Positions 4,531 through 59,741 of a stretch of DNA of 64,000 bases are shown here, in pieces. The notes beneath the pieces were generated by a model. That model did not search any database, was not told the DNA's origin, and worked only from the letters and a program-made list of their open reading frames with translations. Source of the DNA: Eledone cirrhosa. Taxonomy: Eukaryota. Numbering within the stretch: position 1 is the stretch's first letter; each line of letters opens with the position of its first letter. Both the position numbers and the translations under genes were made by a program. The DNA is taken from assembly GCA_964016885.1 (NCBI GenBank), contig OZ024741.1:277574001-277638000 (forward strand), given 5' to 3'.

Positions 4531-4702
4531 ATTATATATATATATACATATATATACAAATAATATACATATATATATATAAGAAAGTGTTTTTTTTTTA
4601 CAAAATGAAAAATAACCGGTGTCCTACACGAGTGAAAGTATAAAGAAAAAAAGATGCAATCGAAAATGCAACTGGAGTCTAATATATATATTTATTTGGT
4701 TC

Positions 4703-4735
4703 CTTTACCGATTTCGCAGTTCTGCTTTTCAAAAG
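4703..4735 (-). ncRNA. Minimal type I hammerhead, U3-A8 core variant (left arm)
   Basis: ctt-TTGAAAA-gcag aa ctgc-GAAAT-cg-GTA-aag. Confidence 0.5.
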
Positions 4736-5670
4736 TAGAATTGAGATGGAGGGTCTGGTTTTTCTCACATCTGGTTGCTCTCTGAATGTTACTTGTTTTA
4801 TATGGAAAAAGAAGTAATTTGATTGGTTGGTCAATAATTATGATAAATATCACGCCAGTTCGCGTTACAAAGTTCTTCAAACAAGGGGGGGGGGTCACAG
4901 GTTGGTTTTTTCGTTAAAAAGGAAATTATGGCTGTCACGTGAACAAGTTTTCATTAAATTTTTGCGCCGTTATTTGGAAATCTATTCTGTAGCCTTTTTA
5001 GAGAATTTTATGACAAGTAAAAGATAATGGTCAAGAGAAATTGGATGGGAGAATTGTTCTGGTTCAGTGAATATGGTTAGTTCGCTGGGGTGTCAGAAAA
5101 AAAGGGGCTCACGAAGGCTTTTTTTTAAGTAAAAAGAAATTCAAACACACACACAACACCAACACACACACACACACACACACACACAAGCACACAAATA
5201 AACATACATATCTTTACTTTCTTTATTCAATAGAGTATCTGAATTCTGACACCCCAGCGAACTAACCATATTCATATTCACTGAACCAGAACAATTCTCC
5301 CATCCAATTTCTCTTTTACTTGTCATGAAATTCTCTAAAAAGGCGACAAATAAGGGCGCGAAAATTTAATGAAAACTTGTTCACGTGAGAGCCATAATTT
5401 CATTTATAACCAATCAAATTACGTTTATTAAAAAAAAGCCTTCGCGAGCCCCCTTCTTTTTAAGTAAAAAGAAATTCAAACACTCATATATGAAAAAAAC
5501 AACCTGTGACACCTTCCCCCCCTTGTTTGAAGAACTTTGTAACGCGAACTGGCGCGAAATTTATTATAATTATTGACCAACCAATCAAATTACTTCTTTT
5601 TCCATAAAAACAAGTAACATTCAGAGACCAACTAGATGTGAGAAAAACCAGACCCTCCATCTCAACTCTA

Positions 5671-5706
5671 CTTTTGAAAAGCAGAAGAACTGCGAAACCG
5701 GTAAAG
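5671..5706 (+). ncRNA. Minimal type I hammerhead, U3-A8 core variant
   Basis: ctt-TTGAAAA-gcag aagaa ctgc-GAAAC-cg-GTA-aag; palindromic stem III ACCGGT; AATAAA at 5713-5718. Confidence 0.65.
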
Positions 5707-8390
5707 GAACCAAATAAATATATATATTTTTTTAAATAAGACTCCAGTTGCATTTTCGATTTTTTTCTTTATATATATATTATATATATATATATATATA
5801 TATATATATATATATTATATATATATATATATATATATATATTATATATATATATATATATATATATATATATATATATATGTATATTATTTGTATATAT
5901 ATGTATATATATATAATATGGCAGATTGGCAGTATATATATATATATATATATATATATATATATATATATATATATATATATATATATATATATATATA
6001 TATATATATATATATCACATATATACACAAATAACATATATATATACATATAAACACAAATATATATATATATACATATATTATATATATATACATATAT
6101 AATTACAAATAATATAGATACACATATATATACATATATATATACACATATATATATACATATATTATATATACATATTATATATATACATATATATATA
6201 TACAAATATACAAATATATATATACATATCCAAATATATATATTGATGATTGAAGGGAGATACGGAAACTAAAACAGTGTTATATAGACAGCGACAGAGA
6301 GTAAAGCAGTTAAATTATAGAGGGGAAATGCTCTATTATAGAGAGAAGGAAGAGCGACGGAGAGAGTAAAGCTAAGGAACTATAGGGAGGTGTGTAGGAT
6401 ACATACATACATACATAATACATACATACATACATAATACATACATACGATGCTCAGCTTTATAATATAGATTTGTATCTATATATATGTATATATATAT
6501 ATATATAATATATGTATATATGTATATAATATATAATATATAATATATGTATATATGTATATATATATATGTATTATATGTATATACATGTATATATGTA
6601 TTATTTGTATTATATGTATATATATATATAATATATGTATATATTATTTGTGTATATATATATAATATATGTATATATTATTTGTATATATATATATGCA
6701 TATATATATATATATACAAATAATATATACATATATTATATATATATATGCATATATATATACAAATAATATATATATATATATATACATATATACATAT
6801 ATTATATATATATATATACATAACTGCTTTACTCTCTCTCTGTCGCTCTCTATATAACACTTTTAGTTTCCGTACCTCCCTTCAATCATCTGTTATCGCT
6901 CGCATAAGTAACACACACACACACACACACACTGACACACGTGTGTGTGTGTGTGTGTGTGTGTCTGTGTCTGTGTGTNNNNNNNNNNNNNNNNNNNNNN
7001 NNNNNNNNNNNNNNNNNNNNNNNNNNNNNNNNNNNNNNNNNNNNNNNNNNNNNNNNNNNNNNNNNNNNNNNNNNNNNNNNNNNNNNNNNNNNNNNNNNNN
7101 NNNNNNNNNNNNNNNNNNNNNNNNNNNNNNNNNNNNNNNNNNNNNNNNNNNNNNNNNNNNNNNNNNNNNNNNNNNNNNAGGAACCAAATAAATATATATA
7201 TATTTTTTTTAAATAAGACTCCAGTTGCATTTTCGATTTTTTTCTTTATATATATATTATATATATATATATATATATATATATATATTATATATATATA
7301 TATATATATATATATATATATGTATATTATTTGTATATATATGTATATATATATAATATGGCAGATTGGCAGTATATATATATATATATATATATATATA
7401 TATATATATATATATATATATCACATATATACACAAATAACATATATATATACATATAAACACAATATATATATATATACATATATTATATATATATACA
7501 TATATAATTACAAATAATATAGATACACATATATATACATATATATATACACATATATATATACATATATTATATATACATATTATATATATACATATAT
7601 ATATATACAAATATACAAATATATATATACATATCCAAATATATATATTGATGATTGAAGGGAGATACGGAAACTAAAACAGTGTTATATAGACAGCGAC
7701 AGAGAGTAAAGCAGTTAAATTATAGAGGGGAAATGCTCTATTATAGAGAGAAGGAAGAGCGACGGAGAGAGTAAAGCTAAGGAACTATAGGGAGGTGTGT
7801 AGGATACATACATACATACATACATAATACATACATACATACATAATACATACATACGATGCTCAGCTTTATAATATAGATTTGTATCTATATATATGTA
7901 TATATATATATATAATATATGTATATATGTATATAATATATAATATATAATATATGTATATATGTATATATATATATGTATTATATGTATATACATGTAT
8001 ATATGTATTATTTGTATTATATGTATATATATATATAATATATGTATATATTATTTGTGTATATATATATAATATATGTATATATTATTTGTATATATAT
8101 ATATGCATATATATATATATATACAAATAATATATACATATATTATATATATATATGCATATATATATACAAATAATATATATATATATACATATATACA
8201 TATATTATATATATATATATACATAACTGCTTTACTCTCTCTCTGTCGCTCTCTATATAACACTTTTAGTTTCCGTACCTCCCTTCAATCATCTGTTATC
8301 GCTCGCATAAGTAACACACACACACACACACACACTGACACACGTGTGTGTGTGTGTGTGTGTGTGTCTGTGTCTGTGTGTGTGTGTGTG
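5705..8390. repeat. Near-identical ~1.2 kb duplication flanking the assembly gap
   Basis: 5705-6978 is repeated at 7179-~8390, differing mostly in (TA)n lengths; probably an unmerged contig overlap. Confidence 0.85.
6979..7178. other. Assembly gap (200 N)
   Basis: Run of n. Confidence 1.
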
Positions 8391-8689
8391 TGTTACTTAT
8401 GCGAGCGATAACAGATGATTGAAGGTAGGTACGGAAATTAAAACAGTGTTACACACACACACACACACACACACACACACACACACACACACACACACAC
8501 ACACACACACACACACACACACACACACACACGCACACACACACACACACACACACACACACACGCGCGCGCGCGCGCGCACAAATACACATACTTTCAC
8601 ACCTGATTTCGCCAATTGCCGGATAACATCAAAACAAAACACAGACACACACATGCACATACATACAAAAACACACACAAACACACACA

Positions 8690-58201: not shown

Positions 58202-58579
58202 AAGGCTATACATTTCAGACAACTCTAACAGAATTTAAAGCGACCGTCCAGCTACACGTGGGAGAGAGAAATCACAGCGTGTTTAGGGCAGTGAACCAGT
58301 GGCTTCTGAGGGCCGAAAACCACTCAGAGAAGTGTGCTCAACCAAACAGAGAGAGAGGAAAGACTGTTATAAGGAGCGAAATATCACGATAAATTAACGG
58401 AGCCAAAGACTCTTGCTATTCCCTGTCAATAATGTGCTCAAAGGAGAAGGAATCCTGAGCTCTTTAAAATACAATATGTTGAAAAGGTAACACACTAGAG
58501 AGAGATAGCATATTATCACGTTAACTTATCGTGATATATATATATATATATATATATATATATATATATATATATATAT

Positions 58580-59318
58580 ATAGTGAGAGAGAGAGAAAAT
58601 GGCCCGGCGTTGCTCGGGATTTTCTCTAGGGTTCTTATATATTTGATATATATTTATCCTTATCGAGCCTCGTGAAATAAATACGTTTGTTTACATTTTG
58701 TTATTGTGTATGCAAAAATATCTGTACACGAATATATATATATTAAAATAACAGATTAAAGTTTAAGCAAAGAATCGCTGCTTTCATCCTTAACGGGATC
58801 TTCTGAAACTAAAATTAAAAAAATCAATCTGTGAACGCAGATGTAAATATTTCGAAAAACGTTGCAACCGAAGGAAAACAGGAAGACGATACTTTGGTTC
58901 GTTAAGATGTTCCCTGGCATAAGAATATATATACACACACTATATATATACATATATACACACACTATATATATACATATATACACACACATACTGATCG
59001 CGTCATAATGACGTAATGCAGACAGTCAGGCATACAGACAGATACTATAAGGGCGCGACGTCATATCTATGTATCTATCTAAAAAGAGTAAGACTAAGAG
59101 AGAGAGAGAGAGATCGCTAAATCGCCTAATGCGGTCTCTAGGGCATTGAAAATTTGAAATTCTTTTCTTCAGAACACTCAATAGGACCATAAGTATTACA
59201 TGTGTAAAGTTTGAAAACAATCGGTTGGGTGGTTCTCGAGTTTTAGTGATTGTACAGACAGACAGACAGACAGACAGACAGACAGACAGACAGACATTCT
59301 CTGTTTTAGTAATATAGA
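58580..59318 (-). mobile_element. Non-autonomous Helitron-like element
   Basis: 5' a|TCtatattactaaaa + (TGTC)n; subterminal hairpin cccgagcaacgccggg near 58602-58618; canonical CTAG end not intact. Confidence 0.6.
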
Positions 59319-59388
59319 TCATATTTGTCCGTTCCTTTGTCGTTTTAATTTGGATTGCCTCGGGAACTTAACCTTATTATGTAATAAA

Positions 59389-59461
59389 CTGTCTGATGAG
59401 ATCATAGCACTGGTTAGGTGAAATCGCGTGGCCACTGTTGTCATCGAAATATGTATTACAG
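59389..59461 (+). ncRNA. Type I hammerhead ribozyme
   Basis: ctgt-CTGATGA-gat..atc-GAAAT-atgt-ATT-acag; aataaa follows. Confidence 0.7.
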
Positions 59462-59614
59462 CCTTATCAATAAAGAAGTTTAACATCTGAAACTACTGAA
59501 ACTACTTCGCACATATATATATATATATATATATATATATATATATACGTTATTCCGGGTTGAATCGGAGGTAACCACAGTAAGTAAGGTACTCAATACA
59601 TTGCAGAGTATAAA

Positions 59615-59741
59615 AGTTTTAATATAGATGAGATTCTACAGGACTAGAATTGTTTCATTCTTTAGAAATCATCAGGATTCCTGATGATTTCTAAAGAATG
59701 AAACAGTTCTAGTCCTGTAGAATCTCATCTATATTAAAACT
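59615..59741. repeat. 127-bp palindrome of two back-to-back hammerheads
   Basis: Centre 59678 (atcagga t tcctgat); plus-strand HHR 59676-59724 gattc-CTGATGA..GAA-acag..ctGT-A-gaatc. Confidence 0.88.

Follow-up and report, generated by a model that had tools for sequence, protein, structure and literature searches.

Palindromic elements of the window

The window analysed here, a 64,000-nt stretch of contig OZ024741.1 of Eledone cirrhosa, contains 15 head-to-head inverted repeats set in (TA)n tracts (at least 10 nt), along with two broken Penelope-like (PLE) ORFs. The original prediction, made from the letters alone, listed 14 of these elements, and alignment recovered an inverted repeat at all 14 coordinates; the 15th (19069) has the same layout. 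In the 14 listed elements, the arms span 34 to ~500 nt, with 89-100% identity over aligned columns, and in gapped alignments one arm directly abuts (0 nt) a (TA)n tract with its outer end, 4580 included. The other, long arm continues into a tail that reaches another (TA)n tract; this overrun, first put at ~30-100 nt, measures 38-116 nt across the 15 elements and exceeds 100 nt in 2 of the 14. The units are 185-1190 nt long, lack ORFs, represent about ten families in 64 kb and cover 12% of the window, a very high density.

Three families include two palindromes each; as for all palindromes described here, no strand is assigned, and the originally listed coordinate is given where it differs. In the first copy of family A (4582..5769, listed as 4580), the tail (4582-4642) is followed by the long arm (4643-~5144, sense -) and the flush arm (~5244-5769, sense +), the latter carrying a hammerhead of the U3-A8 type at 5674-5703. 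The second copy (55641..56794) has 436-nt arms, U3-A8 hammerheads running from 55808 to 55779 and from 56690 to 56719, a 64-nt tail, and a centre consisting of tandem units and a hairpin; the tandem units of this family gave no hammerhead match. The first copy of family B (43545..43948; 43541) has 153-nt arms, each with both hammerhead half-cores around a long stem II, a 16-nt spacer and a tail on the right. The second copy (53997..54329; 54066) shares its internal break and tail end, with the flush arm extended by 22 nt at the 5' side. Family C consists of 19069..19253, with a hammerhead in the flush arm (19125 to 19087), a tail to (TA)n and a perfect 22-bp palindrome centred at 19161/19162, and 59548..59740, with 62-nt arms, a 1-nt centre, hammerheads from 59675 (-) and from 59681 to 59719, and a 68-nt tail. 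We considered 19069 as proof of a flush arm that extends further 5' and dropped it, given that the element is a full palindrome from whose long arm ~76 nt are missing internally.

The remaining families contain one palindrome each. Family D (33700..34194; 33760) combines 198-nt arms, hammerhead cores at 33948 (-) and 34006 (+), a 39-nt spacer and a 60-nt tail on the left; its relative on the minus strand (53510..53800, hammerhead core at 53753) lacks both the tail and the mirror arm and ends at the internal site of 33760. Family E (30259..30974; 30258) has permuted half-cores, a 42-nt tail and a flush arm that reaches further 5' than the long arm, with a match to a solo copy on the plus strand (61054..61371) that retains the tail and has (TA)n at either side. 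The related family G (19787..19973) comprises 34-nt arms, a 79-nt spacer with a half-core in the long-arm orientation and a 40-nt tail. Family F (19278..19743; 19276) is a perfect palindrome (188/188) with hammerheads running from 19376 to 19327 and from 19557 to 19606 and an 88-nt tail on the right, and its relative F2 (54377..55326; 54476) has ~300-nt arms, a hammerhead (54584 to 54535) that is decayed in the flush arm, and a 104-nt tail. The single-copy families are H (42995..43478; 43111), with 99-nt arms bearing an outward 3' half-core, a 170-nt spacer and a 116-nt tail; I (52460..52728; 52493), with 115-nt arms, a 1-nt centre, a 38-nt tail and a 5-nt TA overlap at the break; J (56921..57434; 56919), with arms to ~57121/57145, a short centre, a half-core, a 49-nt tail and a tandem expansion in the long arm; and K (57545..57909; 57544), with 152-nt arms, tRNA-like heads (57696 to 57624 and 57700 to 57772), a 3-nt centre and a 58-nt tail. 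A solo hammerhead element on the minus strand (57951..58533; hammerhead 58194 to 58126) lies between two (TA)n tracts and contains a 39-nt direct repeat (partial tandem).

The description of these elements as mostly unrelated proved overstated: 43541 and 54066 belong to one family, and 19276/54476 (z 10.7) and 19787/30258 (z 5.3) are related, so that the 14 listed elements form about 10 groups.

Hammerhead motifs and polarity

Using our own descriptors instead of Rfam, we found 15 hammerhead matches in the window, whereas 30 block-shuffled versions gave 1.2 on average. Both predicted cores, of type I, are present in 9 of the 15 elements (A, B, C, D, F and F2) and half-cores only in four (19787, 30258, 43111 and 56919); neither the descriptor nor the half-core search detected the motif in 52493 and 57544. 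In agreement with the initial reading, the hammerheads face outward wherever cores were found among the listed elements (families A, B, C, D, F and F2), as does the tRNA of family K. Hammerheads, half-cores or the tRNA reveal the head-to-head polarity of 14 of the 15 elements, 52460 having no such mark. No hammerhead family appears among the best 150 of the 270 Rfam matches for the window or among all 62 for positions 53000-60000; the matches are otherwise microsatellites and hairpins hitting miRNA models, and two tRNA matches. The folding energy of single hammerhead regions gave no consistent signal. The U3-A8 core seen in family A is a described variant of the PLE hammerhead (PMC4209133).

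Association with (TA)n tracts

A scan independent of the original list identified 31 local inverted-repeat loci. In 15 of them, a single end comes within 1 nt of (TA)n, and in none do both; by chance, ~0.5 flush ends are expected among the 62 (p=0.008 per end). The original list accounts for 12 of the 15, and the other three are 53299 and the duplicated pair 6245/7650; this ungapped scan placed 4580 and 56919 at 8 and 6 nt from (TA)n, respectively, and both are flush once gaps are admitted. The commonest dispersed repeat of the window, used as a control (12 copies), has 0 of 24 ends flush, the nearest being 8 and 11 nt off. These counts support the predicted association with (TA)n. The unlisted repeat at 53299-53955 has one flush end, yet its hammerhead-like motif faces inward.

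The (TA)n tracts are very common in the window (254 of at least 10 nt, 6364 bases in total), and between 53.9 and 59.8 kb, neighbouring elements sit in chains on single shared tracts. Both facts could be accommodated if insertion took place at short sites of AT-rich or TA sequence, with the long tracts growing later, by slippage or through a telomerase-related RT, as could the preference of an anole PLE for ATT rather than (TA)n (PMC11167929). We consider such later growth, a matter of the target alone that could accompany either of the copying models discussed below, rather improbable: both ends of the units meet (TA)n, against 0 of 24 control-repeat ends, the chains are explained by nested insertion into one tract, and published work describes (TA)n targeting by Naiad and Hydra PLEs and a microsatellite bias of Neptune (PMC8557442). 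Target duplications are unreadable inside (TA)n.

Tails, break sites and ancestry of the arms

In families A, B, C and E, the copies have homologous tails whose end points coincide or nearly so; accordingly, the tail belongs to the element and is not flanking sequence. Likeness at the motif level links the tails of F/F2 and of E/G, whereas H, I, J and K are single-copy. The internal break, where the flush arm ends relative to the long arm, is identical within A (4580 and 55641, as originally noticed), B and D (33760 compared to the tail-less 53510), differs by 3 nt in C, and in the E/G pair falls 9-10 nt before a tail motif common to both. This recurrence speaks against the random breakpoints within families that had been named as grounds for abandoning the original interpretation. 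A conserved stem-loop at the tail start is unsupported (1 of 12 tails with z < -1.5; mean z -0.26 vs -0.33 upstream). In a few tails, ACTC pairs with a downstream GAGT.

The two arms of an insertion are closer to each other than to their counterparts in another copy. Family B shows 17 diagnostic sites for grouping by insertion, vs 0 and 0 for the alternatives; in family A, two indels and two substitutions are shared within insertions, vs one cross site, counted without the tail columns aligned to TA. The centres differ between copies within a family.

These features bear on whether the elements could be DNA transposons, namely MITEs with a TA duplication, foldback elements or Helentron-type non-autonomous elements. 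TA directly follows the long arm in 19278, 19787 and 55641, and the family A arms contain internal tandem units, as do the arms of foldback elements. However, none of the 31 loci is flush at both ends, in contrast to the symmetric terminal repeats with TA duplications that were another stated ground for rejection; the tail is kept between copies, the arms group by insertion and the centres vary, no consensus is common to the flush termini, the hammerheads face outward, and 19787, the most MITE-like element, is akin to family E in its spacer and tail. The DNA-transposon interpretation is already largely refuted, and we consider it very improbable.

Mirror-image chimeras assembled beside microsatellites could also yield such structures, and the window does include a 200-N gap with a flanking block identical in 1127 of 1127 aligned bases, as well as the perfect palindrome 19278. 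Nevertheless, substitutions separate the arms in 13 of 14 pairs, several of which differ by indels too (62 transitions and 47 transversions in total), and independent copies of a family share their break site, making an assembly artefact extremely improbable.

Two PLE relics and the assignment to Penelope

Both broken PLE ORFs lie on the minus strand, and both relics end at (TA)n. The first (24475..26790; ORF 24748-26790) encodes an RT, a CX4CX2C linker and, at its C terminus, a GIY-YIG domain (E=5.6e-4, under Pfam's cut-off), the linker preceding the nuclease core; a 3' hammerhead runs from 24684 to 24656, and a (TA)n tract interrupts the 5' part. The second (27461..29726; ORF 28182-29726) has a decayed hammerhead core (27580 to 27574) in its 3' region. 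Full-length relatives of the first relic contain RT, HTH and often GIY-YIG domains. Its C-terminal GIY-YIG follows a linker of the CX2-5CxxC form and is accompanied by a CCHH motif, so that, judged by linker and domain content, this ORF is of the Neptune/Nematis type. The CX2-5CxxC linker has been tied to microsatellite bias (PMC8557442).

A tblastn search with 120 PLE-like proteins matched only the two relics and detected no PLE coding sequence in the arms, spacers or tails; hence, we classify the 15 elements as non-coding derivatives rather than autonomous PLEs. No DNA similarity was found between the listed elements and the 3' regions of the relics, which counts against the assignment, as do the motif-less 52493 and 57544, the four elements with half-cores only, the lack of an Rfam hammerhead family among the matches covered above and the inward-facing 53299-53955; within the window, only the solo element 50529 resembles the 3' region of the second relic (z 6.1). 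The assignment to Penelope is nonetheless supported by the hammerheads, the element-derived tails and the two relics ending at (TA)n. Taken together, the element-derived tails, the grouping of arms by insertion, the outward hammerheads and the PLE relics argue for PLE pLTR insertions and not MITEs. Judging from sequence features, we consider a PLE origin very probable, with the elements representing short non-coding pLTR insertions, either 5'-truncated copies or non-autonomous derivatives.

Junctions and the copying mechanism

The centre is only 0-3 nt long in five of the 15 elements (19069, 19278, 52460, 57545 and 59548). Where one arm is longer at the 5' side, it is the flush arm in 54066 and 30258 and the long arm in 55641 and 19787. 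At the internal break, overlap with TA amounts to 26 nt over 12 elements, compared to the expected 11.4 +/- 4.3 (P=0.004), and reaches at least 4 nt in four of the 12 (P=0.0008); seven breaks have 2-5 nt and five have 0-1 nt. The enrichment of TA microhomology at the internal start is thus modest.

Together with the geometry, these junctions suggest the following route, in which PLE proteins of the Neptune/Nematis type would make pLTR insertions. The GIY-YIG endonuclease would nick (TA)n on both strands, as another PLE does in vitro; because (TA)n equals its reverse complement, a single specificity would serve for both. One 3'-OH would prime cDNA synthesis at the tail end, and the other at the site that is fixed within each family, 38-116 nt upstream of the tail end yet downstream of the hammerhead, probably often aided by the observed 2-5 nt of TA pairing. 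Both cDNAs would run to the 5' end of the RNA and be joined blunt or via a few matching bases, which would account for the observed geometry of two head-to-head arms, a tail at only one of them and ribozymes facing outward. If both cDNAs run off one RNA, no spacer would result; if one stops early, the spacer would belong to the other arm.

A different account of the same PLE origin derives the mirror arm from fold-back, with either a cDNA primed at the target or an antisense template that primes itself, the latter proposed in PMC3846280, snapping back to copy itself; copying would stop, or the endonuclease cut, at a fixed site, the product would join the other target end, and the spacers would reflect later deletions of the centre. 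The 0-3 nt centres are readily explained in this manner, as are the hairpin at the centre of 55641, the natural 4-bp inverted repeat at that of 59548 and the grouping of arms by insertion, and the TA overlap could represent annealing of the 3' end of the copied strand. In 54066 and 30258, however, the flush arm contains 5' sequence missing from the long arm, although a later deletion at the palindrome centre, akin to the internal loss in 19069, could mimic this; the tail-less and unmirrored 53510 ends at the internal site; the centre of 57545 coincides with the 5' end of a tRNA-like head in sense orientation, a misfit with an antisense template; and internal initiation has been seen in vitro (PMC11167929). 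We regard fold-back as unlikely.

The junctions favour two primings over simple fold-back. The original prediction had both target strands priming on one RNA, at its 3' end and at a fixed internal site: the fixed internal break stands, and two template sites are the best reading, whereas the 0-3 nt centres fit a single RNA and fold-back equally. We consider it probable that two primings took place, and we have similar confidence in the PLE explanation as a whole, that is, pLTR insertion by two-strand, two-site priming at (TA)n; to a single RNA molecule as the template of both cDNAs, we give somewhat less than an even chance.

A tRNA-headed palindrome

The tRNA-like heads of family K, found at one locus within the window, score 32.2 and 30.0 bits with the Rfam tRNA model (cut-off 29), and ARAGORN calls both arms; A and B boxes were read by eye at the 5' end. 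The centre of the palindrome sits at the tRNA 5' end, and a T5 run (57781-57785), which might act as an early Pol III terminator, lies 8 nt past the tRNA. We tentatively propose that octopods may harbour a swarm of miniature palindromes dependent on PLEs, in which a dimeric PLE protein would prime one RNA twice from both strands of the self-complementary (TA)n. The same machinery may have captured a tRNA-headed RNA at 57545-57909, a candidate SINE whose partner would be a Penelope element instead of a LINE, with both cDNAs running off at tRNA +1. Literature searches at the level of titles and abstract openings, outside most subscription journals and Repbase entries, showed no PLE-partnered tRNA SINE; if true, this member would add a new SINE-partner pairing.

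Implications and comparison with known systems

The formation of inverted pLTRs and the microsatellite preference of PLEs have been named as open questions (PMC8557442), the former with two rival explanations, one invoking self-priming (PMC3846280) and one, implied by PMC11167929, invoking two start sites for priming. Because the palindromes described here are short, abundant, fully readable and drawn from many families, they turn these into countable tests, namely spacer orientation, centre position and break overlap, and if our interpretation is correct, a set of several thousand junctions of this kind would settle whether twin priming or self-priming is at work. Given that they cover 12% of the window, such elements may form a large share of octopod repeats, easily mislabelled as MITEs; if transcribed, they would be a source of long hairpin RNA.

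The inverted pLTR, the tail and (TA)n targeting are already published. Like the elements described here, published PLE insertions have a head-to-head inverted 5'-truncated copy, a tail at one end only, palindromes at the inverted junction and a (TA)n target that hides duplications; their stated tails are 30-40 nt long, compared to 38-116 nt here, where the units span 185-1190 nt and are ORF-less. New here are the 12% density, the excess of TA microhomology (P ~0.004), the junctions favouring two primings and the tRNA-headed member folded at the tRNA 5' end.

In LINE-1 twin priming, the second target strand primes internally on the RNA, producing an inversion with junction microhomology; the internal sites vary, and the two segments as a rule do not overlap. 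The present elements differ in that the internal site has a constant position close to the 3' end, and a single stretch would be copied by both cDNAs. Among titles and abstract openings, we found no work on PLE mechanism that joins Penelope with twin priming.

The closest experimental parallel is PAc, a Poseidon element of Anolis carolinensis, for which work of 2024 found that both DNA strands are cut and extended in vitro and that two RT start sites bound the tail (PMC11167929); two-site priming matches this work and is, therefore, largely anticipated in print. PAc also resembles the present elements in its AT-rich target and in a hammerhead upstream of the start sites; unlike the local Neptune/Nematis-type ORF, it belongs to Poseidon, and its start site lacks homology to the DNA that is cut (PMC11167929), in contrast to the 2-5 nt (TA)n overlap at 7 of the 12 breaks in the window. 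The main text of that paper leaves the inverted arm unaccounted for.

Minimal PLE hammerheads and non-LTR retrozymes (PMC4209133; bioRxiv 10.64898/2026.07.22.740005) share with the present elements type I cores, a short palindromic stem III, the U3-A8 variant, a non-coding derivation from PLEs and, in Schistosoma, hammerheads paired on opposite strands at distances of 100-700 bp. The parts of these sources consulted contain no description of the direction, flanks or breakpoints of such pairs. By definition, retrozymes are tandem arrays, each unit with a type I hammerhead, whereas the elements here are inverted pairs or solos. MITEs and Helentron-type elements are similar in being non-coding and in having inverted repeats with one arm set back from the end (PMC4067079, in the part available); the elements of the window differ from them in that their arms are long, ribozyme-bearing and made anew at each insertion.

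Geometry of the palindromic elements

Inverted repeats are present at all 14 positions listed in the original prediction, and their arms, 34 to about 500 nt long, are 89-100% identical. The outer end of one arm adjoins a (TA)n tract, whereas the opposite arm extends to a second tract, as predicted, over 38-116 nt compared to the claimed ~30-100 nt. An additional element, outside the list, was identified at 19069-19253, and the 15 elements jointly account for about 7.9 kb, or 12% of the window. To avoid the selection inherent in the list, we collected every local inverted repeat in the window with an unbiased, ungapped scan. 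It gave 31 loci, 15 of them with a single end no more than 1 nt from a (TA)n and none with two such ends, where 0.5 flush ends would be expected. Twelve of these 15 loci are listed elements, and the remaining three are an inverted repeat at 53299 and a duplicated pair (6245/7650); the elements at 4580 and 56919, which are 8 and 6 nt off the (TA)n in the ungapped scan, are flush by gapped alignment. In a control dispersed repeat (12 copies), 0 of the 24 ends are (TA)n-flush. The palindromes with one flush arm are a real feature of this DNA. Because substitutions separate the arms in 13 of the 14 pairs (the sole perfect palindrome is 19278), mirror artefacts of assembly were rejected as the source of the arm pairs.

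Polarity and hammerhead ribozymes

A hammerhead descriptor that allowed covarying positions 3 and 8 yielded 15 matches, whereas 30 block shuffles averaged 1.2; looser motif scans added families D (33700) and B (43545 and 53997). Both hammerhead cores are present in nine of the 15 elements (families A, B, C, D, F and F2) and are always directed outward, in agreement with the original prediction, and four elements contain half-cores in a direction compatible with this polarity. The motif is absent, by descriptor and motif scans, from 52460 and 57545, and the tRNA-like head of the latter likewise reads outward. The core of family A is of the U3-A8 form that has been reported for Schistosoma Penelope-like elements (PLEs) (PMC4209133). 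Permuted half-cores, with GAAA ~25 nt before CTGAYGA, are conserved in 19787-19973, 30259-30974 and 61054-61371, where no canonical hammerhead fold was found.

Among the eight groups of firm polarity, seven are outward, counting in the inverted repeat 53299-53955 (139/140 identical; right end flush with a (TA)n), in which a hammerhead-like motif faces inward. This tail-to-tail arrangement encloses a (TA)n tract and a family D relative (53510-53800), and the repeat has a weak resemblance to family C (z 6.0). For hammerheads outside inverted pairs, the nearest (TA)n of at least 14 nt is on the downstream side in six of seven cases; for the remaining one (50529), a tract of 11 nt lies 46 nt downstream. 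Solo, that is, unmirrored, type I hammerheads directed at a (TA)n are located at 17824, 23932, 50529, 58194 and 59393; of these, 23932 is related to 59393 (z 7.7), and the solo element 57951-58533 contains a 39-nt direct repeat.

Independent origin of the palindromes

Tails, the extensions of the long arm, are homologous between copies in families A (4582/55641), B (43545/53997), C (19069/59548) and E (30259/61054), and their end points are the same or a few bases apart; by these alignments, the tail is part of the element. The flush break is also constrained, giving two family-fixed 3' ends: its position is identical in both A copies, which confirms the common break point originally proposed for these insertions, and in both B copies, and differs by 3 nt in family C. 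The flush break of 33700 coincides with the end of 53510, a family D relative that lacks a tail and a mirror arm, and in the related families E and G it lies 9 and 10 nt ahead of a common tail motif.

The arms group by insertion rather than by side, with diagnostic sites in family B split 17 : 0 : 0 and, in family A, two indels (26 and 2 nt) and two substitutions opposed by one cross site. Given that the arms group in this manner and that the centres, where the two arms meet, are unlike between copies within a family, each insertion built its own palindrome. MITEs and foldback DNA transposons are ruled against by these per-insertion palindromes, together with the lack of both-ends-flush loci and of any terminal consensus among the elements. 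The family A arms (4900-5490 and 55990-56490) contain ~127-nt tandem units with what we take to be CCAAT-, E-box- and E2F-like words; these units could possibly act as an internal promoter.

Junctions and a possible mechanism

In 12 elements, one per family label, the long-arm bases past the internal break (the flush-arm end point) match the (TA)n phase over 26 nt in total, compared to 11.4 +/- 4.3 expected from random breaks (P=0.004, or 0.001 with a local null). The overlap is at least 4 nt in four elements; because it is 0-1 nt in five and the 12 include two related pairs, this is a tendency rather than a rule. The motif ACTC, chosen post hoc, occurs within 16 nt past the internal break in six of the 12 (0.7 expected, nominal P 5e-6) and is a possible protein recognition site. 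In some tails ACTC pairs with a downstream GAGT; folding of the tails did not support a general stem-loop.

A PLE protein has been reported to cut and extend both strands, favouring DNA that is AT-rich, and is predicted to be dimeric, reverse transcription starting at two sites, which delimit the tail (PMC11167929). In the elements described here, both strands of the self-complementary (TA)n would prime at two such sites, and the two cDNAs would extend 5'-ward and then join head to head. We consider two primings the probable origin of the palindromes; that both cDNAs come from one RNA molecule is a more tentative proposition, to which we give somewhat less than even chances. Fold-back followed by deletions at the centre, akin to the self-priming proposal in PMC3846280, would also produce a mirror arm and accounts for the tight centres (0-3 nt in five of the 15 elements) as well as two primings does, but requires an additional deletion for 53997, where the flush arm extends 22 nt further 5' (the join may include a 4-nt match), and for 30259, where it extends about 75 nt or more; we regard this route as unlikely. 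In 55641 and 19787, the long arm is the one extending further 5'. Both arms of 59548 stop at a common position, beyond which the sequence runs on 5'-ward in 19069; this fits either one broken RNA copied twice or fold-back at a small natural hairpin there.

PLE relics and the tRNA-headed element

Two broken PLE ORFs on the minus strand (24751-26718 and 28182-29726) are candidates for the motor of the palindromes; the first appears to be of the Neptune/Nematis type by the criteria of PMC8557442. Both end at a (TA)n, with an intact hammerhead at 24684 in the first and a decayed one at 27580 in the second. Because the 15 small elements contain neither PLE coding sequence nor similarity to the relic 3' regions, the connection between palindromes and PLEs rests on anatomy and ribozymes rather than on a matched partner. 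We judge the original assignment to Penelope to be right. The sole link to the second relic is the solo hammerhead 50529 (z 6.1).

The palindrome 57545-57909 consists of two 152-nt arms, each starting with tRNA-like sequence. Both heads exceed the Rfam cut-off, are labelled Ser(CGA) by ARAGORN, and show decay of the acceptor stem and anticodon loop; at the centre, three C residues (CCC) lie between the tRNA 5' ends, and the geometry and tail agree with those of the hammerhead elements. This element may be a SINE or a tRNA read-through RNA copied as far as its natural 5' end by the PLE machinery, although it is a single locus without a hammerhead, and most Pol III transcripts would stop at a T5 run located 8 nt past the tRNA.

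Genomic setting

The DNA is (TA)n-rich, with 254 tracts of at least 10 nt, and includes a 200-N gap. The sole clear host exon (~32112-32615, plus strand) matches rhodopsin-family receptors and is flanked by elements 30259 and 33700, both within about 1.2 kb. Its 89% identity to an Octopus sinensis cholecystokinin receptor-like protein places the genome among the octopods. Further retroelement relics are dispersed across the window, including a tandem 1.13-kb duplication (98%; 37881-40182) of a zf-RVT-bearing LINE 3' end with a SINE-like repeat, to which an inverted copy at 51063-51705 is related, and broken non-LTR ORFs at 47901-49961 (+), presumably of the restriction-like-endonuclease type, and at 46350-47770 (-) and 40709-41453 (+), both presumably RTE-like. 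An abundant short dispersed repeat has 12 copies (4053, 4347, 11446, 13454, 13941, 20984, 37881, 39064, 53045, 62022, 62409 and 62642); it is probably an octopus SINE and served as the control for (TA)n-flush ends. The blocks 5705-6906 and 7179-8309 on either side of the gap are identical at 1127/1127 aligned bases and are likely an assembly duplication; the duplicated block contains an extra inverted repeat (6245-6890) with one end 1 nt from a (TA)n. Inverted repeats at 308-445, 2483-2576, 10183-10707 and 16357-16676 show no (TA)n association.

Comparison with known elements

Earlier publications anticipate the geometry and most of the mechanism. PMC8557442 describes inverted 5'-truncated copies, (TA)n targeting and a tail at one end, of 30-40 bp in contrast to the 38-116 nt observed here; junction palindromes, along with the self-priming idea, appear in PMC3846280, minimal hammerheads and opposite-strand pairs 100-700 bp apart in PMC4209133, and non-coding PLE derivatives in bioRxiv 10.64898/2026.07.22.740005. 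Among titles and abstract openings, mostly outside subscription journals and Repbase, we found neither miniature palindromic PLE derivatives in cephalopods nor a PLE-partnered tRNA SINE. What is new here are miniature, ORF-less, very dense elements and one odd, tRNA-headed member, and the junctions of these palindromes make an open mechanistic question countable.
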